Below are positions 1 to 64,000 of a stretch of DNA of 64,000 nt, in pieces. A program made the translations under genes and the position numbers. The stretch's first letter is position 1, and every line of letters starts with the position of its first letter. The DNA is from Raillietiella orientalis (Eukaryota). The notes under the pieces were generated by a model. That model was given only the letters and a program-made list of their open reading frames with translations, was not told where the DNA came from and ran no database searches. Location of the stretch: assembly GCA_036172245.1 (NCBI GenBank), contig JAYWIR010000033.1, positions 372,001 to 436,000 on the forward strand, given 5' to 3'.

Positions 1-205
1 GGTGCCAAAGAGCAGGGCACGAATGCTATCGCCCTGCCGTATTCCCCACACCACCGGCACGCCGTACGCTGTGAATCCACTGTAATAAATATTAATTAGA
101 GCGCGGCGCCAACATGAGCGCAGGTAGGAGATAAGGGGGGGTAGGAAGCACATGTGACCCAGGAGCCCCAGCAGGAGATCCTGATTTACGCAGTCGAAAG
201 CCTTG
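1..205 (-). mobile_element. L1/Tx1-like ORF2 RT fragment (outermost host H0)
   Basis: Manual minus-strand translation gives KAFDCVNQDLLL..YLRSCWRRAL..GIRQGDS, the same RT motifs as the other copies, with one frameshift. Confidence 0.85.
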
Positions 206-218
206 TGTGCTCCAGGGT

Positions 219-229
219 GGACGTGTTTT
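219..229 (+). promoter_or_regulatory. Representative conserved 5' terminal motif GGACGTG(T)n (candidate internal promoter or initiator)
   Basis: Present at the 5' boundary of every full-length start (9-10 copies, four families). Function is inferred only. Confidence 0.6.
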
Positions 230-1402: not shown

Positions 1403-4126
1403 TTTATTACCCGGTTGCGCCGAAACGTTCATTAAAATATCAACTGAGAACTGTGTTCCCAGGCAAGGGGAACAGAAAATGGGGAGTAGATTTCCCGGAA
1501 CGCAGTCCGGACACACTGAGAGTTCGGAACGGGAGGGGGTAGGACAATAAATAAATAAACTGGGTGGGGGGGTGGGGACAGGGGTATATCGTCTAATTGT
1601 TCCTATTCTCAGAACCGGCGGTGAATGCCGCCGATCTCCATCCTCACTTCTGCTCCAAGATGTGGCCACCCGGCAGCCATTTGCAGGTTGCAGGCTGCGG
1701 TGTCGGGGACCGATGTTAAGACTGCTCGCATATGCAATACGTTGCGGGCCCTGACAATGGCGCGGACGCAGCAGATGATTGCGACGACCGCTCCAAGAGA
1801 AAGTCCGACACGCGTGTAGAAGCGGCTCATCCAATCCAGTGCGGTGTGTCCAGGGTGCAGGAGCGCTGAAGACAGCCGCTGCCACAGCTCCTGGAGGGCA
1901 CCGCACCAAAACAGCAAATGCGGAAGCGATTCCACCGCTCCGCATTTGGCACAGTTCGGGGACGCTACTCCCCCGGAAATCAGGTGCGCCCGCTGGTTGC
2001 AGTACAAACCCCAGTGCACCAGCAGAAAAGCGTCCTGCTTCCACCGAAGGGGGAAGAGAGTCGTGTCCAAACACGCAGAAAGGACCACAAGTTCATCGGT
2101 GGGCACCCCGAGGAGCTCACTTCAACGGAGAAGCCCCTTTGCAAGAATGCGAGGTGTGGTAGCGTCTGCCACTTCGCAAGTCCGCCATCCGCCCAGAAGT
2201 CGGGTTTCGCCTGCAATTTCGCAGGTGATCTCCCACCTCGCCGGCAGGTCACTGTCATCTCGCACCATCAGTGCACACAGTGCTTCGGCGAGTGGCGTAG
2301 CGGCTAGGCGTGTTCATTGGTCCTGGTCTTCCAGCACCTCCCCCACTGGACAGTATGGGGAAAGTTTCACGCAACGGAGTTCCAAACGGGACACATCCTC
2401 TTGCGCTGCCCAGGACGATAATGCTTCCTGCCTCCATGCGTTGAAGTTCGTCGGCCGGCAGGAGATCCACTCATGCTTTCCCAGAAGAGTGGCGAGCTGC
2501 TTCAAAGGGAAGCCGAATCCTCTTTGGGCGCGCTCCGTGCGCACATGCAACGAACGTAGTCCATCGCCACCCGTGCTGCGCCGTAGCAGCAGCCGCGCTG
2601 GAGCACACCAGGGAGTAGTCCAGAGCTGCGCACAAAGTGCCAGCATGCGGAACTGCACTAGCAGTCCGATCCGCTCCAGCGTCGGGATGCCCGATCCTGC
2701 ATCCCGCCGAGGAGCCGCCAAGTCCATCAGGCGTATCCTGGACCTCGCTGGTCCCTACAGGGCGTTACGCAACAGGCGTTGCGCCCGCCGCTTAGCCGAG
2801 TAGGAAGGGGGACAAACAAAAAAGAGGGGACCGAGGAGGGGGGCAACGAAAATGTTCCACACGAAGGCCCGTTCCGACAGGAGAAACCTGCCGCCTTGGA
2901 ACGGGCCCAGAGCAGTCTCGGCCTTGTGAAGGCAGTCCGACCACGCTTCTGCTGGACAGAAGGCGCCCAAGGGAACGCCGAGGTACTTCAAGCACCTTTC
3001 TGTGGGGATCCCCAGGCGGATCCAGTCGGACTGCCCCTCCCACGTAGAGCCAACCGGTACAACGGTTGATTTCGTCCTGTTTACGCTGAGGCCCGCTCCC
3101 CGACGAATAAGCTCGAAGAAGTCCTCGAGCCTGGACGCCAGGGTGGACATAAACAGCAGCAGGAGAAGGTGGTCAGCATAGGCGGCCACGGCCGGTGTTC
3201 CCGGGCAGGAGCTCGGCAGGTTGGCCAGCGTCAGCCTGTACGCCCTCAGCACCAACTGAAAGAAGATGCTGAAGAGCAGGGGGCTTAAGCTGTCTCCCTG
3301 CCTGATACCCCGCCGTATGGGAGCACCGTACACGTGACGCCCGCTGAAAGAGATACAGCATAACGCGTGGCGCCAGCAGGAGCGCAAGTAGGCGATGATG
3401 TGCGTCGGGAGGCCAAGACGTCCCAAAAGCTCCAAAAGGAGGTCCTGGTTTACGCTGTAGAACGCTTTGCAGATATCGACGGCGACCGCTAAGGCTCCCG
3501 GCGTTTTATCGTGCGTTGAACACCGCCGCTTTAATTTGGCAGCGGCGATTGCGGGTGCCTGGCTCTGCTGCGCCACGCGCTGCTGCAACTCGAACCATGT
3601 TCGCGCGAAGAAGAGATTCGCGTCCATGGACCGCCCCGGAACAGCATACGTCTGCTACGGACTTACCAGGGACTCTGCGATTCTGCCCAGACGCGCGACC
3701 CATAGCCTGGAGAACAACTTGACGTCCGAATTCACCAATGTGATCGGACGCCAGTTGCTGAGGTGGAGCAGATCACCGCCTTTCGGCAGGAGCCGCACCT
3801 TTGCTGAGCGGAAAGAAGCGGGAACATCTCCCGTCTCACGCATTAGCTAGGAAAGGCTTAGCACCAGGGGGACGAGCTCCGCCGCGAAGCACTGAAAGAA
3901 CTCCGCAAGCAGGCCATCCTCCTTAGGCGACTTACGCCTCTTCAGGCCCGCTATGGCAGAAGATACTTCTTTCGCCGTGAAGGGCCAATCCAGTTTGGCG
4001 CGTTCCTCCTCGTCGATAGCAGAATTGCCCGTCGGGAGGAGCAGCTCGGAAAGACTGCGTTCCGCGAGCTCCTCTGCGTACAACGAGGAGTAGTAGCGCT
4101 TGACTACGCCGTGTACTTCGGCTGCA
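1403..4126 (-). mobile_element. Family W element W1, 3' part (RT, C-terminal finger, 3' UTR, terminal hairpin)
   Basis: ORF pieces 3847-4167, 3655-3843, 2755-3627 (RQGDSLSP, YADH, KYLG) and 1609-2106 (CAKC..E..PHLLFWC). Hairpin remnant at 1403-1433. Confidence 0.9.
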
Positions 4127-5520
4127 CGCAGGGATGGTGGCTTGGGCCTTCTTACGTTGGAGCGCATCCAACTTCAAACAAGAATTCGAAAGTTAGCCCT
4201 TGCGGCTAGCTTATGGATGACGCCATTGTGCGATCCGGCACGGTACCTCGCCAGAAGAGCGACCGGCTGCGAAGGATTGTCCTCGATCCTCGTGGCCTAC
4301 CAGCGCAGCCTCCCCAACTGTGGTCCCGATTTGCGCCAGATGGTCGCCCTGATGAGGGAGAATACCTGGATCTCCTGCATCCCCGCGAACTGCACTGCCT
4401 GGCTTCAGAAGTCAGCTTCCGCGTGGGCTAAGATCGACGGCACGAGCGAGGCGGAATACAACTGCCTACGACGAGGACCGTACGCTCGACAGCCGCTGCA
4501 GGATATTATCAACACGTCCCGGAAGTTTCTGTGGGCTTCTTTCAGCCCCCTTGCCCCCGTTCTGTCCTCCCTGAAAAACAGTAGGAGCAGCAACGAGCTG
4601 GCATCGTGGGAAGTGTCCTGCCTCATCCGAGGCAGGAAAAAACCTTTAAAGGCGTGGACGACTCGGGAGCTCACTAACGGTGCCACTCCAAGCGTCCCGC
4701 CTCACGGACTTGCGCGCTGGGGAGAGCTGCTCGCAATACCTCCGGAGGAGGTGAAGTGGCCCCCAGCGTGTTGGGATTGCGCCACACTTCCGTTGAAGTG
4801 GCAGGAGACGGCGTTGCTATTTCTGCACTGGGGACTGTTAAGCACAGCACGCCTGTCTCACTGGACACTGGGAAATGTGGATGCCCGCTGTGTCGAGTGC
4901 GGAGAAAGAGAAACATTCCCGCATCTCACCCTCGAGTGTGTCGCCCTGGATATACTCTGGAGTCGAATCGCCCCAATCCTCCATCTTCCAGTAGGCGACC
5001 CTAAGGAAATTTACCGTCGCCTCTTTCTGCGTGACGGCCTGCGCCCCGCCGCGTCTCTAGCAGTCCTCTGCTGCGTGCGCGGCATTGTGCAAAGGTGGCA
5101 CGCCAGAAGAAGAGGCCCAAGATGCAGGGACGCCATCCACTGGACGACGATCTCTTTAGAGACGGCGACAAGGTGGCGTCTACCTTTCAGAGTTAAAACA
5201 GAACTTGACTGTATTCTGAACAGGATGCAAAGGACCGACCCAGGCGCTCAGTGATCCCTTCCCTGCCCCCCCCTTCTCCCCATACAACTGTTTCCCTCCC
5301 CGTTATCTCTCTTTTTGTTTGTTTTTGTTCTAGTTTTCCCTTCCCATGCGCCTCGGGAATGCACCTAACCGGTCTATGCACCGGCAACAGACACGTCAAC
5401 CAAGGTGGGAAAACCAAGTGGTTCCTACAATTAACTTTTGAAAGACTTTATTATCTAATTTTTGTAAAAAATTAGAATAATAAATGCCCCGGCATATCCG
5501 GGTGGCAAACTTCGGCTGCA
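4115..5520. repeat. Target-site duplication pair ACTTCGGCTGCA (4115-4126 and 5509-5520)
   Basis: Exact 12-bp direct repeat. Removing the insert restores the host reading CSAAAEVHGVVKRYYSSLY. Confidence 0.92.
4127..5508 (+). mobile_element. Family X element X1, 5'-truncated, with perfect 12-bp TSD
   Basis: ORF2 C-terminus (RRDGGLGL..CVEC..HLTLEC) ends at 5254, followed by 3' UTR and AATAAA-hairpin. Flanked by ACTTCGGCTGCA at 4115-4126 and 5509-5520. Confidence 0.92.
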
Positions 5521-8500
5521 GCCGAGCATTATTGGCCAGCGTCATCGAGCAGACAAGCCGCTCTAGACTGCCAAACCTGGCGCTCGGCCCTGGCCTTATA
5601 CTCCGCCAGACGCCGTACGTCCGGGCATCGAGGAAAGGTACGCGCCTGCAGATAGGATCTGCTGTTCGCGACACCCTTTCCGAAGCCGCGGGGAAGCAGG
5701 TGCAAGAGGAACCGGCAGCAGAACTCGCGGACCGATCTTTTCAGATCGTCCCAGTCCTCGAGTTCACAGATGGCGAAGCCCCGGGGGTGTTGGCGGAGAT
5801 GCTCCGCCGCCTTCGAATTGCTAAGCCAGTCGGCCGCCAACCTCCAGACATTTATCGGAGGCCCTTTGTCAGGCGGGAGGAGCTCGAACTCCAGTCTAGG
5901 ATGATCCGAAATCGCGGACAGCAGCGGCCTTCTCCGACCTCCTCGTGAGAGCAGGTGTTCAACGAGGAACGCATGGGTAGGCGATCTCTCCATCCCGGGC
6001 TCACTAGCAAGCAAGTTTTGCACGCGCACGGACGCGCATACCTCGCTCACCAGTTGCTTCTCCCTCAAGCGGCATCTCTCCTCTGTTAGCAGGTGGACGT
6101 TGAAGTCTCCTGCAAGGAGGTGCGCCACGTTAGGGCCGGAGTCAGCGAGCCAGCGGCTGCGCAGGCCACCTTGGAATGGAAGTCGCTGGGCGTAATGCCG
6201 GCCGCCGCTCGGCGCGTAGATGTTCGTAACGACCAGGTCGATCGATTCGGACCACTTGAGGACAAGTTGGCCCACACGACCTTCCTCGTCGAAACAAACG
6301 TTCCTCACCGCCTCCGCCACCCTGCCTCGTACGAGGAACGCGACTTGGCACGTGTGCGAGGAGCCTTGCCGCCAGTGTAGCGTCCCGCCCGCGCGCTCTT
6401 CCAGATCCGATGCCTGCCGTACGGAGATCTCATGTATCTCCTGCAGCAGCACCAGATCGAACGCGCGCAAAGCGTTGGCTACCGTCCGCCTTTTGTCAGC
6501 ATCACGTAGCCCGTTGACATTCCAACAGGCCACGCTGACGCGACGAGCGGACGCGAGTCCACGCATCACTGCTGCGGACATGACGGCGTGCTCCTCGCCC
6601 CGTCCGGCGAGAAGTCAGCTGGTAGGAGAGCGGATTGGGAAGCGGAATCGCTCCCGTTCGCCGCCACATCGCGCCCAGCTGAGTCCTGCGAGCCGAGGAT
6701 CATCGCCTCGGTCTCCGTGCAGGAGCCAGAAACGCCTCCGGCAACAGGCTCGTGCTTTCGCACTTTAGCCCGGCGCGCTACCGGCTTACCCCGGGATGCG
6801 CGCTCCATTTGTTTGCACTCGGACTCCACCTCGGAGTCCAAGTGCTTGGCGCGAGACTGGCGTTTTGCCAGTCTCTTTTTGTTTCGGCAGGTGGAGGCTT
6901 GCCCTGCCTGCGCGGGGGTCGTCGCAGTCGCCAACGCAGCTTCCGGAGCTTTGGCTTCCGCAGCCGCCCTCTCGCGCGAAGCGACGGAGACAGAGCACGC
7001 AGCCGTAGTGCGTACTTGGGTACGCACCTTCTTCGGCGTGCTTCTCTTTTGCCTCCCACGCACCTTAAGGATGGGGAATATTGAAGGGTCAACCTTCTTC
7101 TTCCCCTTTGTGGGCGTCCTGGAGACTCGAGTCCAGCCCGCGTCGGGGACGCCCTCCTGGGAGGCCGACGCCTCCCTCAATTGTTTGGCCGGAGATGCCG
7201 GCTCACGTTTCGCGCTCGCGGCGGGAGACGGCTCCGTCCCCGTTACGCACTGCACCTGCTCCTTAGACGATGCGGGCGAAACGCCGGTCATTGCCGTCGT
7301 CCTGCGAGGCGCTATTGCAGCCTTCGCTGCTCGTGCCTTCGGCGTGGAAGACGTGATCTCCACCGCCGTAGGAGGAGATTGCCGTTGAGAGGCAGCTCCG
7401 GGGGTACCCGCGCACGGTTTCCCGTGTGCTCCGCTGGACGCGCAAGCGGACGTGGACGGTTCAGCTTCCTTGATTGAGTGCGTGCCCGCACTCTTAGGCT
7501 GCTTCGAAGGAGGCGATTTGCCCCCAGGGCGACGTGGCATCTTTCCCGTCTGCGCGGTTGTCTGGGATGGTGGCTTCCCTGAAGCATCCGCGTCCGTTTT
7601 CGCGGAAGCTCCACTCGAAGATGCCCCGCCCTTTGCGCTCGATTTCTCCCGTGGCACAACGGGGGATCTTTTCGGCACGGACGATGTCGATTGTTGGCGG
7701 CTTTTCGCCTGCCGCTTCCTCTTCAGCTCGACGCACTCTTTGATGGAGTGGCCGAGCTGTCTACAATAGCGGCAGTTGCTTGAAGGTCACGTCCACGGAC
7801 GGTGGCCCTCGGCACCGCAAACGCCGCAAGCCAGTCGCTGACCGGCAAATTTAAGGTGGACGATCGCATCGCCCACCTGCAAGTGCGGAGGCATTTGCCT
7901 CCTATCCGCAATGGTGACACGCGCCATGGCAAGTCCGCTGTGGAGAGATGCAATCCTTTTGATCGGATTATCTGCTCTCCACAGCGCGTGCACCGTGGCG
8001 AATGCACTTAGTGCAGCGACGAGCACGCGATCGGGCGGGTCCACCTGGACGGCGGATAATCGGACCACGAACGACTGGTCCATGACCGACGGGACGACCT
8101 CCTTCCCGCGGATATTTAGCGGGGTGCATAGAAGGCGCTGGACTAGAGATGCCTCTTTGCGGTGCACCTCCCAGTGTCCGAGCGCGTTAACCGGCATGAC
8201 GGCCTGGAGGTCGTCCTGTCGGACCCCGACGCGCAAAAGCTCGCCCCACAAATTTTCTCCGACCCCGTCGGAGATAGAAGCACTCACCGGATAGCAGAGC
8301 GCAGGCTTGTAGCCATGAGCTGCATATGCCTGCAGCTCTGCTTCGTCGGGCGGTGCTCCGTTAGCTGCCGCTGCCTTGACGACGGAGGCGAAGCTTCTCG
8401 CCGGTGGCGAGACACAGGAATCAGAGGCGGACCGGACATCTGGAGTAGAGTCTCCACTGCCAGTTGCAGCCTCCACATCCATCTTTTGCTGCAGGGGCTC

Positions 8501-8588
8501 CGTGGACATCCCAGTGGGCGCAATCGGGCACACCACACACAAATAGACGGAAAGGAATCACGCTCGAGGAGCAACACAGTACACGTCC
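5509..8588 (-). mobile_element. Family W element W1, 5' part (5' UTR, ORF1, endonuclease)
   Basis: EN ORF 5529-6581 (WNVNG, LQEIH, NIYAP, AGDFN, SDH). ORF1 pieces 7787-8542 and 6566-7678. 5' GGACGTG motif at 8588-8582. Confidence 0.9.
6566..8509 (-). pseudogene. W1 ORF1 (RRM-like region, CCHC knuckles, low-complexity basic tail), frameshifted
   Basis: MSTEPLQQ..GYKPALCY..CGVCGAEGH, then a frameshift near 7790 and a Lys/Ala/Ser-rich tail ending in a TGA that overlaps the ORF2 ATG. Confidence 0.8.
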
Positions 8589-9174
8589 GTGCGGGCGTTG
8601 TGGTCGAGCGTGTTCTCGATGTTGCCGAACGCTGCCGGAAAGAACTCGCCGCTACCGACGACATCCCCTCTGTTGACACAGTCAACAGCGAGGGGAGCGA
8701 GCCGGCGGCGGCGTCCGTCATCGACACCACCATCGATGTCGTAGCCTTCGCGGGAGCAGCGGAGGAGCTGGCAACTTCGTTGCAGCCAGAACCCTCCAAG
8801 GCTGGCAAGAAGGCCGTAAGGCGTCCGGCCTCCCCTCAGGAGTCCCCCACTTCCCAGCCCGAGGTGAAGGCCCGAAGCGCAGCTTCCGTTTCCACGGCAC
8901 CGCGCAAGAAGTCTGGACGTAAGTCCACAAAGCCAAGAAAGCTCGTCTCCCCCGTCGAAGGGGAAGAGATGGCTTCCGCAAGCGAAGGTGCCATGAGCGT
9001 GGGCAACTCTCGGGACCCGTCGCCCGAGAGATTCCCACGCGCGGACACGCAGGGGATGAAGGGGGTGGAGGCCGAACAGGTGCCTCAGGTGCCTGAGAAG
9101 GCCTAAACCCCCATGAACATCCCGCCCGCCTCGCAAGAGGAGGGCTCCCCCACACCTTAATCTTCCCAGCAGTA

Positions 9175-50195: not shown

Positions 50196-52847
50196 GGACG
50201 TGTTTTTTCTTTGCCATCGAGTGAGTCGACAGAAAGCGTTTTTTTTTTCTTTGTGTGTGTTCGTGTGGAACATCGCTGGTGTCCGATGGCAGCGATGCCT
50301 GAGGACACCACGATGAAGGTAGGTGTGAGGGAGGCTTGCCCACCCCCACAGCCTACAGAATGAGGGGCGTCCGCCCCGGAATCGCCCTCGCCGCCCAAGG
50401 CGAGGAGCTGGAGCGCCATGGTGGCCGCGCCGAGCGCGGAAACCATGGCCGAGATGGCGGCCTACCGGGCAGCTGGGTACAAGCCCAGCTTGGTCTACCA
50501 GGTAGGCAATCTCTGTGACGGGCGAACTGCACGCGCTTTTTCGAAGGCACTGCAGAACGCCAACGTGTTAGAGAAGGATCTTGACGGTCTATCCGTGCAC
50601 AGCGAGGTACAGCGCGTCGAGGTTGTCGGCAAGGACATCACCTTGGCGCAAAGCTTGATTACTACCCCGCTGAACGTGGACGGACTCAAGATCCTGCCAG
50701 TAAAGATGGACCGCTCCGTAGTGGTCCATCTGAGAGGCATCCCCATCCGCATGAAGCGGTCTCCGGTTGGTGATCAGCTAAGGAAATATGGCGAAGTTCA
50801 CGCGCTATCGCCTCAGGCTACAAGCTTCGATAATAACGATAGCCTCTTTAAAGTGCAGGTTGCCGCGCGCGTGACGGTGAACAAGGAGAGTAAGCTTTCC
50901 CACAAACTAGAGGTCAGTGACGAAGTAGTAGACCTCTGGTACGTGGGGAAACCCCACTTTTGTGGCTACTGCAATGCAGTAGGACACTTGCGCAAGCGGT
51001 GCCCGAACATTGTGTGCCACTTATGCGGGAAAAAGGGCCACGTGCGCCGCGTATGCCCTAAACGCCTCACTCTGGTGCCGCCTGCTGCAAAGAAGGCGCA
51101 TGCAAACCGAACAAAATTGGTCGAAAGACCAAAAAGTGATACTGGCCGGAAGCAGCCGCAAGCCCTTATTCCACCGACACATGCTTCGGAAGGAAAACCT
51201 TCCGAAGACGCGAGAGTCCATGACGGCTGGCAGCTGGTTAAGACGAGGAAGGAGAAAAACGTGTCCCCCGCGGAACCCGCGAAAGGGGTCAAAAAGACAG
51301 CCGGCAAGGCGAAGAAACCTGGGCCCCGCTGCAGGACCATATGGGAATGTACGGTGGCATTGGAACGCATAGCCGTTTCTTAGACTGCCACCCGGGACGA
51401 CGAGCCTTCCCTCGCCGTTTCGGTCGCGCCGGAGGTTCGCGACGGCGAACCCTTTGTTTACAGATAAGGACGAGCTGCGCGATATAGCGACGGTCGAAGT
51501 CGAGGACGCCGCGTTCGCGCAGGCAGCGAAGGGGCTCGCGGCCACGCTGGCCGAGCGTGAGAACCGCTCGCGCAAGGCCGTGCGAAGGCCGGCTTTCGCG
51601 AAAAAGGCCCCCACGGTTCAGTTGGACCTGGGATCCGAAAGTGCATCCTTCTCCTCGCAGGCATTCCCCAGAAAGTCGGGACGCAAGTCCCAGAAATCCA
51701 GGAGGCGCATCCCCTCCATCAGCGAGGAGTAGAAGCAGGAAGTTAGCGGTAGCGTGGGAATCCCGGAGGTGCAACTCCCACGCGCGGAAGCCGTCGAGCC
51801 GGCCACCCCCATGGAGGAAAGTGAGCAGGGGCGCGAAGCCCTCACTGCAGTCGCCGAGCCTGAACAGCCCGCCCCTATGGAGAAGGGACAAAAGGTAGGA
51901 GCGACCCAACCTGAGGGTGACCCGCTCGACGCGCGGTACCCATGGAGGAGGGGGACCAGGTGCACGTAGCGCCTGACCCTCCTCCTCCACCCAGCGTCCC
52001 GCCCCAACATGTGGCGAACACCGCATCGTTATCTTTCCAGTAGTAACACCTGGGCTCGCCAGTCCCCGTCAGATTCGCGCCGCCTATTGGAACGTCAACG
52101 GGTTGCGCGACGACGGTAACAGGCGAGATATGGCCGACACCATGAGTGAGCTCGACCTGGCCCTGCTGCAGGAGATCCACGTGATCACCGCGCTAGACGC
52201 CCAGGACATTGAGACGATCGCGGAGGGTCGGTTGTATTGGCGATGCGGCCTTCGCAACACCTGCGGGGCCGCGCTCTTCGTGAAGCCGGCGATCGAAGCA
52301 GCCGTAAAGGGCGTGCGTTTGATGACGACGGTCGGGTCGGTGAGCTGATTCTCAGCTGGTCCGACTCGATGGAATTGATCGGCACAAACGTGTACGTCCC
52401 AAGCGGAAAAGGGGGATACAGCGACCATACCATGTTGCTGGAAACCCTGAAGCGCGACTGGCTGGCGGACACGAATGTGCGCAATGCTCACCAGATAGCG
52501 GGGGATTTCAATCTCCGTCTGCTAACAGGTGAGCCAGAAACACAAGAACGCACGGCGAACGAGTAGTGCGCTGCCATGAGTGCGCGCAACTTTTTCGCGG
52601 GTGAGAGGGGAATGGACCGCAGCATCGACCACGTCTTCCTCGACGCTGACCTGTGTTCACGGGTCGGCAAACAGAGGAGGGTTGCGTCGACGTTGTCGGA
52701 ACATTCCCGGCTAATTTTCGAGATGCGGCCCCGCGAAAAAGGACCGCCATCCAGGGATTGGCGTCTGCCGGAGGACTGGACGCGACTCTCAGGTGCGAAG
52801 GAACACCTTCGCGAATACCTGAGAGGCGTCACGCTCTGGAATCTTCA
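50196..52847 (+). mobile_element. Family Y element Y3, 5' part (ORF1 and endonuclease)
   Basis: GGACGTGTTTTTT start, ORF 50418-51383 with two CCHC, EN pieces 52103-52845. Confidence 0.88.
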
Positions 52848-55760
52848 TTGCAACCCGGGTGCGCCGCGTCGTTTATTATAGCGAATAAACCTATACAATC
52901 TGTGACTGGACCAGCAGTCCAGCCACGCCCTGGAAAGATATATCTTGCCGGGCTACCGGTACGCAGACCGGCGCGGTCGACGTCGGAAGCAGAGGGGAGG
53001 GGGAACGAAACAAAAAGAAAACAAAAAATAAACAAAAATCAGGGAGGGAGCGGGAAGGGATCACAGTCTGCTGGGAGGGTCCGTCATCCTCTATAGGATG
53101 CCGGCAAGCTGTTTCTGTGTGTGTGGTTAGAGATGGGGCAATCGCGTCGCCATCCTGAGGAAACGGGCGGCATACACGTTGGCATCCCTGTCGCTGGATC
53201 CTCCCGTCGCTTTGCTCCATGCCACGACGATCCCGCGTAGGCAGCACAGGGCTGCAAGCGAGGCCGCTGAAGGCAGGGCGTCACAAACGAAGAGGGGGCG
53301 CAAAGCCTCTCTAGGGTTGCCTTTGGGGATCCCCAGAGCTGCGGCAAAGCGTTCCCACAAGAAACAGAGGGCAACACAATTCACTAACAGGTGGATGAGG
53401 TATTCCCTCTCCCCGCACATGACACAATTAGGGTTGACATCCCCCCGCGTCCAGTGATGTCGGCGGGAGCTGCAAGGAAGCCCCCAATGGAACACCAGCA
53501 GTGCCGACTGTTGCCACTTCATGGGGAGGGTGCGCGAGTCCATGAGCACCGAAGGCCACTCGAGATGTTCCTCTGGAACATCCAGTAGCTCTCCCCAGCG
53601 CAACAGTCCATTTGGGGTGGTCCTCGGGGTCGCAGCGTTGGTGAGCTGACCCGTTCTCCAATCCCCGATCTTTTTGGCCCTGCTGGCGATCTTGACAATA
53701 ACCTCCCATTGTGCCCGGACGTCGCTGCCCAGATGTTGCCGTAGGGTAAACAGTACCGCAGCAAGGGAGGTACTTTGTGCTCACGCACTCCTTCAGGGAT
53801 TCTCGATGATTTCTCGGAGCGTGCGGTGGACATGCGGCCCGAACAGAGCTATTCGCTCGTGTTGCGGGCTCTGCTCCAGAATCATCGCCCACGTGCGGAC
53901 GGTTTCCTGGAACCAGGCAGGACCGTTCGCGGGGCGTACGAGGATCCGCGCCGAGTTGTTCTTCACGAGCTTAGCCGCCCTCCGAAGTTGAAGTCCGCAG
54001 TGGCAGATGGGGCTTCGGAGTGCAAAGTAGGACGAGAGTCCTGCATTGTTGGTGGCCCGCTCGACGAGGAGACGTGCAGGGAAGCACCAAGGGGTGCACC
54101 AATTTTCTGCCATCAAGGCAACAACTCGGAACTGGAGCTGTAGCTCCAGCCGCTACAACGTCAGGAGGCCCAGACCACCATCACGACGAGGAGCGCACAA
54201 GTCCGAAAGACGGACTCGGGGCCTCCCTCTGCCCCAAAGGGCGATAATCAGGAGGTCCTTTGTCCTCTTTTTTGACTCCGCTGAGGGGGAACAAACAAAA
54301 AGCAAGGGAAGAAGGAGGGAAGCCGAAAACGCGTTTTACGCCGCGGCCCGTTCCTGGAGGTAGAACCTGCGGTCCTGGAACGGGCCGATTGCCGCCCGAG
54401 TTTTCTGAAGGACGCCGGACCACGCTTCCGCAGGGGAGTAGTCCCCCAACGGCACACCAAGGTACTCGAAGTACCTCACCGTGGGGATCACCAAACGGAT
54501 CCAGTCCTGCTGCCCTGCCCACGCCTCTCCGACTGGCATTACGGACGACTTCGCCCTGTTCACCGTCAGTCCTGTTCCCCGACTCAGCAGGTCGAAGAAC
54601 TCCTCGACCGCCGCAGCCGGGGTGGACATAAGCAGCAGCAGAAGGTCGTCCGAGTACGTCGAAACCGCAGGCGTACCGGGACAATCGCACGGCAGGTGCG
54701 CCAGAGTCTCCCTGTACGCTCTCAGCACCAATTCGAAATAGGCGCTGAAGAGCAAGGGGCTGAGGCTGTCTCCCTGCCGTATGCCGCGTCGCACCGGTAC
54801 GCCGTACACGGTGGATCAACAAAAAAAACATTAATAAGCGCGTCGCGCCAGCTGGAGCGCAGGTAGGCTAGCAAAGAGGCCGGGAAGCCCAAGCGTTCCA
54901 GAAGCTCCAAAAGGAGATTCTGGTCGACGCAATCGAATGCTTTAAGCAAATCGACTGCGACCGTGAGGGCTCCTCTCCCCTCCCGACCATCCCGTCCCCC
55001 ACCGACGGACGCACCGGAATTCCGGTTGCTTATTATGCTCCTTCCTTGTTGGAGCTCTAACCATGTGGAAGCGTGGAATAGGTTCGCCTCCATACTTCGC
55101 CCGGGAACAGCATATGTCTGTTCCGAGCTGATGAAGATGTTGGCGACTCGTAACAGGCCCTCTGCCCACAGCTTGTCTAGCAACTTGGCGTCCGCATTCA
55201 CTATTGTGATGGGACGCCAGCTGTTCATGCTCCTAAGGTCTCCTTTCTTAGGGAGGAGCCGCACCTTTGCTGAACGAAACGTGGTGAGAACGTCATCTGT
55301 TTCGCGGATCAGCAAGGTGAGATGATGTACCAGGGGAGTAAGCTCTGCCGCGAAAGTTTGATAAAACTTCGCAGGCAGGCCGTCCTCCCCTGGAGCCTTT
55401 CGCCTCTTGAGCTTTCCGATGGCCGAGATGATCTCGCAAATCGTGAACGGCTCGTCAAGGTTCCTTTTCTCCTCCTTCCCGATTGCTGGAGCACCTTCCG
55501 GAAGCAGGAGTCGTTAGACAGCCTGCTCCGAAGGCGCCTTGGCGTACAGGGAGGAGTAAAATTTCACTATCCCGCGTTTCTGAGCGGGAACCGAGTGCTC
55601 CCGGTCCTGGTCGTCCAGCAAGCTTGCCGACCCGGATTGCCAGGCTTGCCTCTCGGCTCCCGCTTGATACTCTGCTAACCTGCGCATGTCGGGGGTTCTC
55701 GCGTAACGTCGGGCCTTAAGATAGCACCTCTCGTTACGCGACCCATTCCCGAATCCCTCT
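52848..55760 (-). mobile_element. Family A element A3, 3' part
   Basis: RT pieces 54722-55315 and 54336-54809 resemble A1. Finger ORF 53127-53603. Hairpin at 52848-52877. Confidence 0.86.
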
Positions 55761-55770
55761 CCTCGAAAGC

Positions 55771-58405
55771 GGACGTGTTTTTCCGGCGCTCCGCGAACGA
55801 GCAGCGGAAAGCGTTTTTTTTTGGTTCAGTGTGTGCTTTTTCACATCGTTGGTGTCCGATGGCATCGCTGCCAGAGGTCACCACGATGGAGGTAGGCGTG
55901 AGGGAGGCTAGCCTCCGCCCACGACCTACAGTATCAGGGGCATTCGCCCCGGAATCGCCCTGTTCGCCCAAGACGAGGAGCTGGAGCGCCATGGTCGCCG
56001 CGCCGAGCGCGGAAACCTTGGCTGAGCAGGCGGCTCACTGTGCCTCCGGATATAAACCATCCCTGGTGTATAAGGTAGGAAACCTGTTCGACGGTCGCAC
56101 CGCGCGTGCCTTTGGCAAGGCACTACAGGAATTCTCCGTGCGTGAGGAGGATCTTAACGGCCTCGCCGTACTCAGCAAGGGGCAACGCGTGGAGGTCGTC
56201 TGCAAAGACGTAGCCCTAGCGCAGCGCCTCATCAACACCCCGCTGAATGTGGCTGGCCGAAGGATCCTACCCGTTAGCATGGACCGCACCGTAGTGGTCC
56301 ATCTAACGTGGATCTCGAACCGCATGACGCGCTATGCGGTGAACGCGAAATTGAAGAAATACGGAGATGTGCACGCGCTGTGGCCAAAGCCAACCCTTTT
56401 TGACGGCTATAACAGCCTCTTTGGTGGCCAGGCAGCAGCGCGTGTCACTATGAACAAGGGTGCTGGGTTACCCCACAAACTGGAGGTCGGGAAGGAGCCC
56501 GTCGACCTTTGGTACGTAGGGAAACCCCGCTATTGTAGCTACTGCGATGCAGTAGGGCATGTGCGCAGGCGGTGCCCGAATATCGAGTACCACTTGTGCG
56601 GGGAAAAGGGACACGTCCGTCGTGTGTGCCCAAAACGCCCCACCCCGGTGCCACCTGCTGCCAAAAAGGCACAGCCTAAAAAACGAAAAAAGATCGAAAG
56701 AGCTTATCGCGAAACTAGCCGGCCTTAGCCGCCATCTCCTGTTCCTTCCACCCAGGCGTCGGAGGAAAAACCCGCTGAAGACGCGGGAGAGGAAGAAGGA
56801 TGGAAGCTGGTAAAGGCCAGAAAAGAGAAAAAAGTTCCCCCCGTGGAACCCACGAGAGCGAAGAAAGAAAAGAGCGCAAGAACGAATTAACCCGGTCCGC
56901 GCTCGAAAACTCTTTGCGAGTGCACGGTGTCACTCGAACGGATTGCCGTCCCCGAGGCTGCCACCCGGGGCGACGAGCCTCCCCTCGCCGTTTCCGCCGC
57001 GCCCGAAGTTCGCGACGACGAACCCTCTGTTTGCACAGAGGGTGAGCAGCGCGAAGCGCGCGCCTAAAGCGAGGACGCCGCGTTCGCGCAGGCGACGGAG
57101 GAGCTCCCGGCCACGCTGGCCGAGCGTGAGAAACCCTCACGCAAGGCCGTGCGAAGGCCGGCTCCGCCGAAGAAGGCCCCCGCAGGTGAGTGCGATCTCG
57201 GGGCCGCAAGTGCATCCTCCTCGTCGGAGGCACCCCCCGGTAGACGGAACGCAAGTCCCGATAGCCGAGGAGGCGCCTCCGCTCCACGAGCGAAGAGGAG
57301 AAGCAGGAAGCCGACGGCAGCGTGGGAATCCCGGAGGGGGAAATCCCACGCGCGGAAGTCGTCGAGCAGGCCACCCCCATGGAGGAGGGAGAGCAGGGAG
57401 GCGAAGTCCTTCTTGCCAGCGCGGACCCTGTACAGCCCACACTTATGGAGGAGGGCCAACAGGTAGGCGCGACCCCTCCTGAGTGTGAACCGCCCGACGC
57501 GCCGTCACCGATGGAAGAGGGTAACCAGGTGCTAGAGGCACCTGTCCCTCCTCCTCCACCTAGCGTCCCGCCCCAACAGGTGGCGGACGCCGCACAGCCG
57601 ATTTCCCAGGAATAACACCTGGGCTCGCCTGGCGCCGTCGAATCCGCGTGGCCAGTTGGAACTTCAACGGGCTGCGCGACGACGGCAACAGACGAGATAT
57701 GGCCGACACGCTGCGTGACTTCGACCTGGCCCTGCTGCAGGAGATCCACGTGATCATCTCGGCAGACGTCCAGGAGATCAAGGCGATCGCGGGGGGTCGA
57801 CTGTATTGGCGATGCGGCGCCTGCGACACCTGCGGGATCGCGTTCTTCGTCCAGCCGGCCATCGACGCTGCCGCGAAGGGCGTACGCTTTGATGACGATG
57901 GTCGGGTCGGTCAGCTGATTCTCAGCTGGTCCGATAAGCTGATTCTCAGCTGGCACACCTGATAGCTGGAGACTTCAATCTCCGTCTGCTGTCAGGTGAG
58001 CCCGAAGCACAAGAACGCACTGCGAACGAGTTGTGCGCTGCCATGCGCACGCGCAACTTGTTGGCAGACGCGGAGGGAATGGACCGCAGCATCGACCACT
58101 TCTTCCTAAATGTCGACCTGTGCTCGCGGGTCGGCAAACGGGGAAAAGTTGCGTCGACGCTGTCGGACCATACGAGGATCATCGCCGAGGTTTGTCCGCG
58201 CGACAAAGGACCCCCGTCCAGGGCGTGGCGGCTGCCTGGGGCCTGGACGCGGCTCTCAGGTGCGAAAGAACACCTTCGCAAATTCCTGAGAGGCGTCACC
58301 CTTCGCAGTCTCCAAGACTGGGACCTCTTCAAGGCCTCGGTCCGCGAGTTCTGCGAGGAGTTTCCCCTGCACTGCCTGTACGCCCCGGGCGTACCCGGGT
58401 GACAA
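55771..58405 (+). mobile_element. Family Y element Y4, both termini present but RT and 3' UTR deleted
   Basis: GGACGTGTTTTT start, ORF1 pieces, EN to FPLHCL at 58378, then directly CGCCCCGGGCGTACCCGGGTGA, identical to the Y1 terminus. Confidence 0.85.
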
Positions 58406-59150
58406 CCCCAAATCCTGCAGGTAGGCGATGCAGGGGGAACTGGTCGCAGAACTCCTGGACCGACCGCTTGAAGCGGTCCCAGTCCTGAAGTGTCTGCATC
58501 CTGAAGCTCCGAATAAACGCGCGGAGGTGCTCCGCCGCGTCGGGAAACTTCAGCCAGTCCCCTGGCAGACGACACGCTGACGAGGGGGGGCCCTTGTCGC
58601 GCGGACGCACTTCGAACATGATCCGACCATGGTCCGACAGCTCGGATGGTACCTTGCCGCGCCTGCCCACCCGAGAACATAGGTGCTGATCAAGGTACAC
58701 GTGATCGATGCTGCTTTCCATGGCCGTGTCCCCGGCCAACAAGTTGCGCGTGTTCATTTCTGCACACAACTTGTTGACGCGGTCGTTCAGTGTATCAAGC
58801 GCACCTGAAAGCAAGCGCAGGTTGAAATCACCTGCGATCAGGTGCGCTTTGCGAACTCCTGCATCGGTCAGCCAATCGCGTCTCACGGCAAGGTAGAATT
58901 CCCTTCTTGCCTTCGCCGTCAACGCGTTATTTCCGCTAGGAGCGTATAGGTTGGTGACGACCAGGTCGATAGAGTCGGACCAGCTGAGAGTCAGCTGAAC
59001 GACGCGACCTGCGTCATCGAACCGAATGTCCTTTATTGCGGTCTCGATGGCGGGCCGAAGCGAGAAGGCGACACCGCTTGCTTTCGCGGTGCCGGAACGC
59101 CACAACAGCCGCCCACCCGAGATCCGTTCGATCTCCCGGGCTCGTACAGT
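58406..59150 (-). mobile_element. Family A endonuclease (continuation of A3)
   Basis: ORF 58329-59306: EIERISGG..NLYAP..AGDFN..IDH..SDH..RLPAGFG. Confidence 0.88.
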
Positions 59151-59151
59151 G

Positions 59152-60503
59152 CAGACGTGTTTCCGCGTCTTTCCGCGCCAACGATCGGGCAACTTTGTGC
59201 CTGCGTTTTTGCTCGCACTTGTGTGTTCCTGTGCAATCTGCCAAGTAGCATAGTGCAACATGGCCAGTACACAGGATAGTGTGGAGTAGCAAGCCACTGG
59301 ATGCACTTCAGCTGCACTTGAAGTGGCCGCATCCTCCGTAATGGTTTCCTCGCCCCCGGTGAGGAGTTACGCCGTCGTTACCTCCCAAAGACCAGGACCC
59401 TGCGATGCGGAGTTCCAGGCATATGTGTCATCAGGATGCATGCCTGCACTCCGTTATAAGGTCAGTGGGCCACTTAACGGGAGAATCGGTCGTGAGCTCA
59501 ATGATGAGCTCGTCCGGATAGGCGTTCGCGAGGAGGAACTCCTTGCCATAATGCCTGCTGGCAGCATGGAATATACGAAGATTCGGTGCAAGAACGCAGC
59601 ACTTGTGCAGCGCCTTCTCCGTACGCCGTTGACCATCAATGGCAAGGAAGTCCTACCTACCGCGATGGACGACTCTTTTGTCGTTCAATTGTGCGACATC
59701 GAACCGAAAATCTCCGACCGCGATGTTGTCAGCGTGCTGGCGAAGTTCGGCAAAGTGCACGCCCTGTGGAGAAATCAGAACGCTTTGTAGGATTTCTCCT
59801 CTGTCCACATCGGACAAGCTACCGCGCGGATCACCGTCGCAAACAGGCGTGTTGTGCCTGAGCAGCTGCAGGTGAACGGCACGGTCGTTCACCTGTGGTT
59901 CATAGGCTAGACTCGCGCGTGCGAGCAGTGCGGCAAGGATGGGCACCGAATCAAAGGGTGCCCCTCTCCAAGATGCAGCTATTGCAAAGATTCCGGGCAC
60001 GAAATCAAAAAGTGCCCGGTGATTGCAAGAAAAAGATCCGCAGCGGAAATTCGTCGGGTTCAAGAGACCACTGCACGAAAAGCCGCAGCGGCAAATAAAA
60101 AAAGTCCTCCGCGAAAACTCGGAAAAAACAACGAGCGTTCCGCGGATGAAAAGAAAGCATCCCCTCCCAAAAAGACCCGAAAGTGGAAAGTCACGGCGGG
60201 AAACCAATTAAGAAGATGCGCAAGGGTTTGACGCGTGCCGTGCCCTTCCTCGCTGCCGAACTCGCAGGCACCTCTTCGAGTCAGGTACCAGGAAATCTCC
60301 GTAAGAGCCTGAAGAGGAATGTAGCAAAACAGGAAGATCGCAACAGTGCGAAGACTTCTTGCTCCGTTCCGTTGTCCTTTCCGAGTTCCGGACAGCCCCA
60401 CTGCAGCGCACGCCTCTCTGCAAAGGCTACCAATGCCGTAAAAAGCATCGTCGAGACGAGCAAAAGCACGCTGCATGCACTCGCCTCACCGCCGACTCGG
60501 CAG
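59152..60503 (+). mobile_element. Family W element W5, 5' part (ORF1); same subfamily as W3
   Basis: AGACGTGTTT start. ORF 59323-59790 matches 35054-35569. CEQC..GH..C and CSYC..GH..C knuckles near 59920-60015. Confidence 0.86.
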
Positions 60504-63500
60504 TTTTCCCCAAGTCCCAAAAGGGGAGGGGTAAATTTATTTTTCGAAAATTTAACTAGAAATGCATTCACACTACAGTCTCATTCATACCATTTGCACT
60601 GTCTTTACCACACGAAAGTCGATGAGTTCACAAGTTCTGCACTCATGGTGGGTTACCTGCTGTTCGGTCCCGGGCGTCGTCTTCTATCCTCTTCAGGATG
60701 AATCGAGACGTCCAGGCTTGGATTTTCTCACAGTTTCTAATGCCGATTTCCCTCTTCAGGAGCCCTTGTAGGATCTCCATCGGTGGTGCGGCTCTTCTGG
60801 CTTTCACTTATTTTCTTCCATTGCACAAGTATCGCGGTGATGAAGAGGGTGATGGTCATTCTCACCATGGGATTGTAACAGGGCAAATTACCATCCCCAT
60901 GAAACATCCCGGCAAGGATCTCCATTACGGACCTGGTGTTGAGTCCGATGATTCTTTTCAGAATCAGCCTGTAATGCAACAATGTGGCACACGTCAAGAC
61001 GTGAAGTCTGGTGTCGTTGTCTCCACATGCCGTGCAGTCTCGATCTTCATGTCTTCCCGTATAGTACTGCAATCGGGACCCACTCTGGATTCCTCCATGA
61101 TAAAACATCAGGAGGTCATCCTGGGTGCCCGGCGGAAGGTCATTTCTCCAGAGCATCGTGCCGATCGCTAGCAGGTTGATGCGGTCTCTTCCGAAGCAAA
61201 CGGCGGCTTCCTGGAGGGCACTCATTTCACATTCGTCTTCCCGAATTAATCTTCGGAGGTTTGTTTTGTATACCCTGGTCCACGCGAAGTCGTTGTGGTT
61301 GATCCACACATCGCGGGTCATGTAGATAAACCTTCCTAACATGATATCTATATACCTAAGTATACGAGTGTGATGTATGTACCCTCCTTGTTTCCACTAC
61401 TGGATTCATTGTACGGTAACTCTGGACCGTTGGTGGATCCAGCTCCTCGTGTCCGGCGGCACAGGAAGCATCCAAACGATCACCAAAATGGACTCGTACT
61501 GCCACAGTTCATTACTTCTCGGCACCAACTCGATTTTGTGCTTTCGCACCAGATGTTGCCTCCTCGTCCAGGTTGGGTCGAGTTTTTTCCATTCGCCTGC
61601 TTGGCCTAGCAGCGCAGTCATCAGGCCTTTCGTGTTGTTCAACAACAACGCGTAGGCCTTGTGCGCCGCATATCGCCAGTCATACCAGTGCGTGGCAATG
61701 TCCAGGATGTGTCGCGTATCCATGATTTCTATGGAGTTTGCAAGCGACTTCATCCCGGAACCGCCTTCTTCCCTGGGACGACACAGGGGTTTTAGTCGAA
61801 CTCTTGGGCGATAGTGGCCTCACAGTATTTTTCTCTGCAGCTTGTCGAACTCCCTCGTGGTGTCCTTGTTCATCCTCTCGAAGGCCGCCCCGAAGAGCAC
61901 TTTTGAAAGGGGTACTCCGTTCCACATGTTGGCCTTTCGCTTCATTCAAAGGTCCTTTCGGGTGTACTTGGTTGCTTTCTTGGCCGTTTTCCCTTGGATC
62001 TCGGTCAACAGTAGCTTCGACGCAGAGAGGACGCCAATGTAACACCCAGGTACTTGGCCTTGTTTACCGTTCGGAATCCTCTCCCCGCTAGAGCAAAGAG
62101 ATCGAGGATTCCAACGAGCAAGAGCTGACTTTTCTAGGCGTTGATATTTAGACCCAGGCCTTGATCCATCAGGTCCACCACATCCAGAAACGCTCGTTGG
62201 TTTCTCTCTCCCTTGATAAGGAAGAGTGGATCATCAGCGTTTGCCAGATAAGTAGGACGCTGGCCATCGATTATCATGCCTTGCAATCGTCCGCACTTCT
62301 ATATAAAGGACGACAACGTCTCCATATAGATAACGAACAGCATCGGACTTAGCGAATCGCCCTGTCGGACTCCTCGTTCCATCCTGATTGCTGCCGTCTT
62401 CTGGCCGTTGATCTTGATCCGGCAGTACTGGTTCTGGAGTACCGCCCTCACGAATTTGCTGAAGTGTTCCGGAAGCCCTAGCTTCTCCAGAACCTTCAGC
62501 AGCATCCCGTGGTCGATGGAGTCGAAGGCCTTCTCCATGTCAGTGAACACCAGCACCAGGTTCTCGCCGACGTATCCACTGAGTCCAACAGTGGCCTGGG
62601 CACACTTGACATTGTCCGACATGTGTCGTCCTGGGACTGCAAATGTCTGGAACGGAGAGATCAGCCTCGACATGACCTTGCCTAAGCGGTTGGACCAGAT
62701 CTTCCCCAACCACTTGGCATCGGAGTTTAGAATCGAGATTGGCCTCCATTGGGCGATCTCGGTAGAGTCGCCTCCTTTCGGCAGCAATCTCATCCGACTC
62801 TCGTAGAAGGACTGAGGTAGTCTGCCTTCTTCCCGGATGCAGAGGGTCAACTGGTGGAACAAGCGCAGGTAGGCGTGCAGGTACCGCTGATAGTGCGTGA
62901 TGGGTACACTGTCAGGGCCTGCTGCCACGTCCTTGCGAAGTTGCCCAAACGCAGTCTTCACCTCTTCTTCGGAGAACTCCTCCTCCAGTCTGTTCCGCTG
63001 GAGGTCGTCGGTCCTCTTCTCGAGATAGCTCAAGAAGGCCTGTTGACTAGAGCGACACAGCTGTTGTCGCCTGAAGTGTTTCGTGTAATGCCTGTGAAAG
63101 GCATCCACGATGTCCTCAGACGACTGTCGCTTTCGGCCGTCGTACTGGATGCAGAAGATATCTGTTGCCAGATTTCTCTTCTCCAGCACGCCGACTTCCC
63201 CTTTTATGTTATTGAGGACGTACCCACTCTCGTACTGATCGAAGTACTTTGAGAGGGAGCGATCTCGGATGTTCAGCTCCCGGTACGCCTCTTGCCTCGA
63301 GCGCCTATCCCCGAACTGCATGTTCGCAAACAGGTGTATCCTTTGTTTCAGGCTGTCTCAGTCGGCGACTCTTCGGATTGTTGTTGCCTTCAGAATCGTC
63401 TCCAGGACAGCCTGATTTCCGGGATGGGTTTCGAACCAGGCAGGCATGCTGATGAGCGCCGCCCTGGTGCCTTGCCTTCGCCGAGGATTGTCCGTTCTTA

Positions 63501-64000
63501 GGGAAAACCGCACCAGGGGGTGATCGGACACCGTGGTCATAATGTCTCGAAAACCCTGGATTCGATTCCTAAGTTCGGTGCTGTGCAGGACGTGATCGAT
63601 CGGCTTGTGACTTGCAGTTCGACACACCAGTCCGAACTCGTCGGATAACCGCCGATACGCCGTCCTTCCTCTGGCGTCTTCGGAGTGAGTGATCTCATCC
63701 AATATGTTGAGATCGCCAGCAACAATCACGACGTCCTTGGAAGCAACCTTTTCACGGAGTGCTGCATGCAGCGCCTCCGTACAACGATGTTTTAGCCTGT
63801 GCGGTCCGTACACGTTCACCAGGATGAGGTGAACAGTAGCGGACCAGGCGAGTCGCACGCCGATGATTCGTCCGGGTTGGGGTCAGAACACTTTCAGAAT
63901 AGTGGGGGCCAAGTTGTTCTTTATTAGGACCGCCACTCTCTGCGTGTTCCGTTCTCCCTCGCTGACGAAAATCTGCCCGTTGAATCGCCGTTCCATTTGC
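60504..64000 (-). mobile_element. Distant L1/Tx1-like family D, degenerate ORF2 and 3' end; runs off the window
   Basis: EN 63358-63858 (NVYGP, AGDLN, IDH, SDH), RT 62299-63321 (WRPIS, DMEKAFD, RQGDSLSP), finger CTAC..HVLTC in 60737-61342, AATAAA near 60537-60542. Confidence 0.88.

Follow-up and report, generated by a model that had tools for sequence, protein, structure and literature searches.

The 64-kb stretch of DNA analysed here, referred to as the window (64,000 nt; positions 372,001 to 436,000 of the forward strand of contig JAYWIR010000033.1, Raillietiella orientalis assembly GCA_036172245.1), raises the question of whether several families of long interspersed nuclear elements (LINEs) can build a domain of their own by inserting into one another at preferred sites. 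The original prediction held that they do, and described a mutually targeting community of sister families nested antisense in each other. We found that the window is a recursive nest of L1-type sister families, that insertions in it recur at short coding motifs, and that the copies meeting at one of these motifs, 'GFG', have diverged in a way that shows them to be separate insertions. All positions below are those of the window, and the group and copy names (A, Y/h, b, D and the rest) are labels of the present analysis, which differ from the X, Y, W and A of the original prediction.

A recursive nest of sister LINE families

All stop-to-stop open reading frames (ORFs) of at least 130 amino acid residues (aa) in the window (n = 169) were scanned with Pfam. 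Matches were obtained for 27 of them, all to LINE domains (RVT_1, Exo_endo_phos/Exo_endo_phos_2, zf-RVT and CCHC-type knuckles), and no non-LINE Pfam family was found among the 169. When ORF1 and ORF2 pieces from the window itself were used as tblastn queries, 74.5% of the bases were covered; nucleotide self-similarity within the window covered 83.2%, and the union of the two reached 93.1%. Eight stretches remained uncovered (4,360 nt in total). They consist of family-specific 3' untranslated regions (UTRs), ORF1 tails and, in a fifth LINE, the C-terminal part, and each of them is flanked by recognised parts of one and the same element. Thus, with all Pfam matches to LINEs, a coverage of 93.1% and element parts on either side of what remains, the window is a LINE-only domain, and the earlier claim that every base belongs to a LINE family was borne out.

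About 20 elements were resolved, which fall into four sister groups and one distant fifth LINE. The grouping was made from identity matrices of the endonuclease (EN), reverse transcriptase (RT) and C-terminal regions together with an RT tree. Group A contains A1, A2/A3, g, n6 and E19 (A1 is 87-99% identical to A2/A3, with g at ~70% and n6 at ~65%), and group Y/h contains E6, Y_A1, h and Q/E13 (~91% for E6 and its copies, 89% between h and Q/E13, 78% between the two subfamilies). Group b consists of P1/b, P2 and E16/E18 (b, E16 and E18 at 69-83%), and group D of D, E14, E15, E17 and Z0 (73-87%). The tree comprised 10 window copies and, of the 40 best database hits, the 31 with an alignment of at least 180 residues, the other nine being shorter; its reference sequences were database hits that carry no clade names. 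The four groups formed one clade (support 100/99) with a long stem and short internal branches, which argues that they are close sister families, as had been claimed. The fifth LINE was placed as a distant sister of the four groups (support 99/94). Its protein is only 24-31% identical to the others, yet it has the same end architecture (AATAAA, a CCCC/GGGG hairpin and GAAAA). The nearest protein from outside the window was a metagenome ORF with 65% identity; the next had 39% and all others had at most 40%, including the named hits (turtle, fish, pseudoscorpion and Closterium). No homologue of the EN-RT ORF was found at E <= 0.001 among 8,000 word-sharing candidate proteins, and comparison with the ESM Atlas returned generic RT clusters only.

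Six insertions were verified by a duplicated target sequence or by abutting host halves, and the target-site duplications (TSDs) support a nest at least four levels deep. In the left part, Z0 (1-207, minus strand), a D-group RT fragment that runs past the left window edge (aa ~594-659 of the reference ORF2 in tblastn; 75% blastn identity to D at 21283-21480), is broken at its RT 'HKAFD' motif by P1/b (plus strand), with a 14-nt TSD of which 10 of 14 positions are identical (KAFD-site copies at 194-207 and 12974-12987). P1/b is itself split by A1 (minus strand). Its left half, P1_up (208-1403), was recognised by tblastn with ORF1 and holds the b-family 5' UTR and ORF1 as far as 'ECGVIV', and its right half, b (8590-12973), holds the ORF1 tail, a full ORF2 and the 3' hairpin; the TSD of 14-15 nt has 2-3 mismatches (1390-1403 vs 8590-8604). 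A1 lies antisense in P1 ORF1, with a 3' half from the 3' hairpin to ORF2 aa ~378 (1404-4125) and a 5' half of EN, ORF1 and a 5' UTR lacking ~55 nt (5509-8589). Between these halves, antisense at 'AAEV' of A1, stands Y_A1 (4126-5508, plus strand), a Y-family element 5'-truncated at ORF2 aa ~839 and bordered by a perfect 11-nt TSD (one copy at 4115-4125).

The middle part is the deepest, with P2 containing A2, A2 containing a full-length E6, E6 containing a full-length D, and D containing n6. The segment at 12974-14082 (plus strand) begins with the second KAFD-site copy and continues as P2_up, a b-family 5' UTR and ORF1 as far as 'CRVVV'; b and P2 therefore stand head-to-tail with the 14-nt copy between them, an arrangement that fits re-cutting of a target regenerated by the TSD. 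The 3' half of A2 (14083-16779, minus strand; 3' hairpin to aa ~378) interrupts the ORF1 of P2 in antisense, exactly where A1 interrupts that of P1. It is followed by E6_up (16780-19384, plus strand), with the Y-family 5' UTR, an ORF1 open over 540 aa and EN as far as 'PPGFG', and by the 3' part of D (19385-22720, minus strand; 3' hairpin to EN aa ~175) at the GFG of E6, in antisense orientation. An A-group subfamily element, n6 (22721-24272, minus strand), 5'-truncated at aa ~815, is inserted in sense within the EN of D, with a perfect 11-nt TSD (22710-22720/24273-24283), and the 5' part of D follows (24273-26717, minus strand; EN aa <175, ORF1 and a 5' UTR with a GACGTG motif). E6 resumes just past GFG as E6_dn (26718-29699, plus strand), the 3' end of which, with its hairpin, meets A2 at 'AAEV'. 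The upstream fragment of A2 (29700-30232, minus strand; aa ~380 to ~205) is cut by the breakpoint of a tandem duplication, in which a 3.2-kb unit, combining a Y element's 3' part with a portion of the EN of its host A, occurs twice (27006-29979 and 30233-33208; 91.6% identical). The duplicate of E6_dn, Y2dup (30233-32929, plus strand), runs from aa ~421 to the 3' end and is followed by A3_up (32930-35564, minus strand), with an A-family EN bearing an internal deletion, ORF1 and 5' UTR.

In the right part, Q/E13 contains h in its ORF1 tail and E14 at its GFG. Q (40794-42015, plus strand), of the h subfamily, supplies the 5' UTR and ORF1, and E13 (45822-47268, plus strand) continues it through the ORF1 tail and EN to 'LPGFG'. 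The intervening h consists of an inverted piece (42016-45110, minus strand; ORF2 aa ~25-1054) and a sense piece (45111-45821, plus strand; ORF2 past aa ~1054, aligned at 45122-45448 to the ORF2 of the Y copies), which meet at ORF2 aa ~1054. The 3' hairpin terminates the sense piece, and a perfect 13-nt TSD encloses the whole (42003-42015 / 45822-45834). Thus h is a twin-priming 5' inversion of a single insertion in sense orientation. A reading of h as a 3'-truncated antisense guest of Q was rejected, as the inverted part belongs to a sense insertion with a matching sense 3' piece and a TSD. E14, a D-family element (47269-50191, minus strand; 3' hairpin to aa ~328), lies antisense at the GFG of E13, and is followed by E15 (50192-52848, plus strand), a D-family 5' UTR, ORF1 and EN as far as aa ~304. 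Both E14 and E15 break around their own GFG site, and E15 may be either a D-family guest in the D-family host E14 near GFG or the inverted 5' segment of a twin-primed E14.

Antisense in the EN of E15 lies E16 (52849-55750, minus strand), a b-family element running from the 3' hairpin to just past GFG, the upstream half of which is E18 (58406-59153, minus strand; EN aa ~70-323). These two halves meet at GFG around E17 (55751-58405, plus strand), overlapping by 3-4 nt (GGG). E17, which lies antisense at this site, has a D-family 5' UTR, ORF1 and EN to aa ~321, and lacks ~3 kb of ORF2 and 3' UTR: its EN ends three codons before its own GFG and is joined to the last 27 nt of the element, a D-type hairpin (58379-58405). 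The sequence at this internal joint is nearly palindromic. E19 (59154-60500, plus strand), with an A-like 5' UTR and ORF1, has its 5' end in the EN of E18, and the fifth LINE (60501-64000, minus strand; EN, RT, C-terminal CCHC and the 3' end described above) stands in the ORF1 tail of E19, in antisense, and extends past the right window edge. The recursive nest of sister L1-type families is therefore real. Its evidence comes from one 64-kb window of a single contig.

Antisense contacts prevail in it, at 14 of the 16 readable guest-host contacts, or 10 of 12 after four possibly non-independent ones are removed. The predicted antisense nesting held to that extent: n6 and h are sense insertions, both at unique sites, and the 'antisense pair' seen earlier at h is one element with a twin-priming inversion.

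The elements share a plan of 5' UTR with a GACGTGTTT motif, ORF1, ORF2 and a 3' end with a hairpin. ORF1 has two CCHC knuckles (zf-CCHC Pfam matches), and ORF2 encodes an APE endonuclease, an RT and a C-terminal Cys/His region, with Exo_endo_phos and RVT_1 in one ORF chain. The zf-RVT matches (E 4e-5 and 2e-4) were weaker than the Pfam cut-off; a C-x2-C-x7-H-x3/4-C motif can be read in the C-terminal translations of ORF2. Among solved structures, human LINE-1 ORF2p was the closest to the RT and EN-RT ORFs (E 1e-25 to 1e-28, vs 1e-5 to 1e-11 for R2). Because an APE endonuclease and an RT occur in one chain and human LINE-1 ORF2p is the best solved relative, the elements are assigned, on sequence grounds, to the L1 clade. 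The hallmarks of target-primed reverse transcription (TPRT) are present, namely TSDs, 5' truncation and twin-priming inversion.

At the 5' side, a scan for the GACGTGTTT-like motif with at most one mismatch gave 14 matches, eight of which stand at element 5' ends (220, 13000, 40810, 50197, 55772 and 59154 on the plus strand; 26704 and 35564 on the minus strand), the other six being internal. The terminal copies lie ~15-25 nt from the 5' end and were found in all four groups, and the motif may belong to an internal promoter or serve as a 5' recognition signal. At the 3' side, 14 ends have an AATAAA-like signal, a short stem-loop of the CCCGG/CCGGG type and about five purine-rich bases, and a poly(A) or A-run was absent at all 14. 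A pattern scan had listed 17 candidates, of which 12 were genuine and five internal; two further ends were read separately. The hairpin was predicted at the same place in 12 of the 13 ends that were folded. Twelve of the 14 ends adjoin the coding sequence of another element. The remaining two, those of b and g, are head-to-tail with another element's 5' end (for g, beside the 5' end of A3 or a 46-nt EN-like stretch).

The window has a G+C content of 51-63% across 2-kb bins, and long ORFs are abundant on both strands. Some of the long open frames in G+C-rich stretches are antisense to real ORFs, as within 8147-9481 (8147-9103, plus strand, and 8561-9481, minus strand) and elsewhere. Those at 8147-9481 had no homologues beyond weak antisense matches, and such frames are probably by-products of G+C-rich codon usage.

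Recurrent landing sites and tests of their independence

Three D-family 3' ends lie antisense at 'GFG', in the linker between EN and RT, and fall in the same alignment column, immediately past the GFG codons (19385, 47269 and 58405). The guest/host pairs are D in E6, E14 in E13 and E17 in E18, the hosts coming from two groups (Y/h and b). At 'AAEV' of the A family we found Y 3' ends at 5508 (A1) and 29699 (A2), with a duplicated copy at 32929, and at 'CGV' in the ORF1 of the b family we found A 3' ends at 1404 (P1) and 14083 (P2). The recurrence of guest/host pairs at fixed positions, claimed from the sequence earlier, is thus confirmed at all three motifs. By our own arithmetic for random insertion (6.5-kb host, either strand), two further hits in the same orientation within ~2 nt would occur about once per 10^7 trials, and the recurrence is far from chance. 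A reading of the Y-into-A site as 'PKFA', homologous to GFG, was rejected as lying in the wrong frame; the alignment gave 'AAEV', ~50 codons downstream.

The predicted junction in an EN at 'EIERIS' is also real, the EN being that of a b-family element. A3 and E19 both adjoin this region with their 5' ends. An A-group subfamily element with a full ORF2 and a 5' truncation within ORF1, g (35611-40793, minus strand), has its 3' end a few codons farther on. The sequence met by A3 and E19 is a near-identical 46-nt stretch of b-family EN ('CTVRA..IERIS'; 35565-35610, plus strand, and 59100-59153), which in E18 is continuous with the remaining EN. The 46 nt at 35565-35610 may be a remnant of a b-family host or a 5' leader carried by A elements; an origin as an ORF1 remnant was rejected, the match to b-family EN being closer. 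A similar 'C(T/G)V..IERIS' motif occurs in ORF1 as well, at the A-family landing site.

Part of the refuting condition attached to the original prediction was that all recurrent junctions trace to single insertions copied by segmental duplication. The ratio of nonsynonymous to synonymous divergence (dN/dS) bears on this, and was obtained from Nei-Gojobori counts on in-frame tblastn segments of paired copies. The known tandem duplicate (27006-29979 vs 30233-33208) served as control and gave 0.58-0.85. The pairs connected with GFG gave lower values: 0.29 for the hosts E6/E13, 0.36-0.49 for the guests D/E14, 0.22 for E15/E17, 0.25 for E15/D, 0.29-0.45 for b/E16 and 0.30 for b/E18. Synonymous divergence (dS) of pairs at the GFG junctions was 0.5-1.1, E13 was 89% identical to h and only 78% to E6, and the terminal tails and hairpin loops of the guests differed. 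Both host and guest copies have therefore diverged under purifying selection (0.22-0.49), as active lineages, and inserted separately. At least three independent insertions have thus struck GFG, in hosts of two groups, and a single copied insertion is excluded at this site.

The other two of the three recurrent site classes could each be one copied event. The values for A1/A2 (0.56-0.70), Y_A1/E6 (0.66) and P1/P2 (0.86) are near-neutral, like the duplicate control, and these pairs belong to two adjacent, direct composites in which P contains A and A contains Y. The two Y guests in A nevertheless have different 5' junctions, Y_A1 being truncated, with a perfect TSD, and E6 being of full length, and the identity of the P-A composites is uneven, ranging from 65% (P ORF1) to 99.5%. 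For these reasons Y-into-A probably represents two separate events, and A-into-b ORF1 may represent either two insertions or one that was copied by duplication. The claim that sister families use each other as landing sites therefore stands for the TSD-supported nesting and for the independent reuse of GFG, and is weakened at AAEV and CGV, where reuse could reflect copying.

Related LINEs are abundant in another data set. In the public DNA run X1, 8% of the sampled words matched, and 607 contigs were 80-99% like the 35600-55599 stretch; at this likeness threshold of 80%, 396 of the 607 were less than 90% alike and 11 were at least 99% alike, which marks the run as that of a relative and not of the source of the window. 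Among the joints listed for this run, one has a Y/h-type 3' end, 16 nt and a Q-type 5' end, head-to-tail as in b/P2, and in another a Y/h-type 3' end lies beside antisense ORF2; both are anecdotal.

Explanations of the recurrence

The best explanation, and one that we regard as probable, is that the LINE-only domain arose by repeated TPRT of the four L1-clade families and the fifth LINE into one another, at non-random sites. In each event, one host strand would be nicked, its 3'-OH would prime cDNA synthesis at the guest 3' hairpin, and a second nick 11-15 bp away would give the TSDs, with 5' truncation and twin priming as in L1. At least the D family would prefer the short EN-RT linker sequence 'GFG' of its sister families; the Y family would probably prefer 'AAEV' of A, and the A family probably the 'CGV' motif of b-family ORF1. 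Mostly antisense insertion would then produce the onion-like pattern of alternating strands, regenerated targets that are cut again would give head-to-tail pairs, and later tandem duplication, gene conversion and deletions would be overlaid on the nest. Sequence specificity of the endonucleases would be the cause of the recurrence, and we infer that the same pattern extends genome-wide.

Several observations weigh against this explanation. GFG was occupied at three of nine window sites, no motif was seen that separates the occupied from the empty ones, and D's own GFG site is target-like yet empty. The b-family guests occupy RT KAFD of Z0 and EN aa ~304 of E15, which are not alike, and the A-group guests n6 and g occupy other sites, so that some insertions in the window stand at non-recurrent positions. 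Where D joins E6, the TSD is of poor quality, mismatches affecting ~3 of 10 positions. The near-neutral divergence (0.56-0.86) in the adjacent direct composites belongs here too, as does an 800-bp tract of 99.5% identity (A1 2136-2935 vs A2 14824-15623) amid surroundings of 65-96%, which is probably the result of recent gene conversion. Hairpin z-scores were modest; because only 6 of 13 reached z <= -2, the conserved position of the hairpin weighs more than its folding energy. Finally, a metagenome scan for the 3'-end pattern found six loci, and none of the six had a tblastn match to LINE ORFs, so that they are chance matches.

A full mutually targeting community is plausible. In its strongest form, the families would make up a closed LINE community, the endonucleases of which have diversified to read motifs in each other's conserved coding sequence, and which builds and renews a gene-free domain, possibly a centromere. 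In the pairings seen here, D is the guest of Y/h and b (in the EN-RT linker), Y of A, A of b (in ORF1 and EN), and b of D. Each family would parasitise the genes of another, usually antisense and with inactivation of the host copy, as a hyperparasitic, multi-family version of the Zepp mechanism, and purifying selection on the victim protein would keep the landing site constant. We put this form forward tentatively, as a possibility that is somewhat more apt to prove wrong than right.

It is also conceivable, although unlikely, that targeting is regional only, for instance to a centromere or heterochromatin, as has been proposed for Zepp/ZeppL, and that the repeated junctions arose, without sequence-specific cutting, from a few composites multiplied by segmental or tandem duplication, unequal crossing-over and gene conversion. 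The tandem duplication of a guest plus host unit is clear, and the near-neutral, adjacent P-A-Y composites, the 99.5% conversion tract and the several insertions at unique sites are all as expected from such copying. What it does not account for is the GFG class, in which hosts and guests have diverged under purifying selection, come from different subfamilies or groups, and differ in terminal tails and hairpin loops; the different 5' ends of the Y guests in A and the unevenness of the P-A identity (65-99.5%) likewise disagree with simple copying.

Improbable, in our view, is a placement of the junctions by guest-host homology, through annealing of cDNA or nicked ends at homologous or microhomologous stretches, including twin priming where the guest itself carries the target sequence. 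This would explain why A3 and E19 are joined to b-family EN at one and the same position by their 5' ends, with a 6-nt match between guest 5' motif and host, why the breaks of E14 (aa 328) and E15 (aa ~304) flank their own GFG, and why E17 lacks everything from its own GFG to the hairpin. However, the recurrent junctions are 3' junctions, at which the guest end (hairpin plus tail) is not complementary to the host site; the guests are antisense, so that the primer strand is like, and not complementary to, the guest RNA; and TSDs of 11-15 nt fit ordinary staggered nicking. Wrong chaining of repeat reads in the assembly is hardly credible: the region consists wholly of repeats 70-99% similar, and only 11 of the 607 run X1 contigs were at least 99% alike, but host halves up to 10 kb apart match with TSDs in six cases and the two pieces of the twin-primed h are consistent with each other, features that chimeric assembly would not create.

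If the cross-family site preference under repeated TPRT is genome-wide, the families would represent a natural series of related L1-type endonucleases with different short targets, useful for understanding how APE-type LINE nucleases read sequence. They would also offer a clear case of transposons that use the conserved coding sequence of other transposons as a safe landing site, and would show how several families, and not one, can construct and renew a LINE-only domain such as the presumed centromeres of some green algae. If it is not, the window still stands as a well-resolved nest of the Zepp-like kind, in which TSDs, 5' truncation and twin priming are textbook marks of L1.

Comparison with known LINE arrays

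The HeT-A, TART and TAHRE elements of Drosophila are several LINE families that share one niche, where they are added head-to-tail at chromosome ends. The window resembles them in that several LINE families build a LINE-only array, and differs in that its insertions are at internal sites of one another and not at chromosome ends. Among target-specific elements, Tx1L inserts into the transposon Tx1D, and its relatives target snRNA or rRNA genes or microsatellites. The Tx1 group of the L1 clade is described as APE-type with target-specific insertion (PMC3747384), which recalls the D family at GFG. The targets in the window are coding sequences of sister LINEs, and the likeness is one of description and not of comparison with named Tx1 sequences.

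Nested self-targeting LINE clusters are already known. Cnl1 of Cryptococcus is described as inserting by preference into its own copies, oriented in tandem, and as forming nested arrays (PMC9942834). Here too non-LTR elements are nested in non-LTR elements, but Cnl1 is described there as a single family, in tandem sense orientation and subtelomeric, whereas the nesting in the window is cross-family, mostly antisense and in coding regions.

The closest likeness is to Zepp and ZeppL, for which we relied on descriptions in later papers and not on the Zepp sequence. In Coccomyxa subellipsoidea C-169, Zepp forms clusters of nested elements, one per chromosome, that are thought to be centromeric (PMC3446292); the clusters grow by insertion into existing copies and contain tandem arrays mostly of 3' ends (PMC8226300). 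ZeppL-1_cRei is given as the only ZeppL family, at Chlamydomonas centromeres (PMC9940879), and the excerpt of a Chlorella centromere study reports mixed contents of transposable elements and gives no nesting rules (PMC11005252). The window shares with Zepp/ZeppL the L1-clade membership, the G+C-rich nested clusters, the insertion into existing copies and the LINE-dominated domain. In contrast to the single family per species of the Zepp clusters so described, the window has four sister families and a fifth LINE. It also has many near-full-length copies in mostly antisense nesting, as opposed to tandem arrays mostly of 3' ends, and junctions in coding sequence that are precise to the nucleotide. 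Its elements lack poly(A), whereas (A)n tails are listed for Zepp and L1-1_CR (PMC3747384, Table 3).

In the main texts of open-access papers and preprints, we found no description of several LINE families with fixed sites in each other's coding sequence. By these comparisons, the window is best filed as a multi-family, mostly antisense, site-preferring version of the Zepp-type nest.

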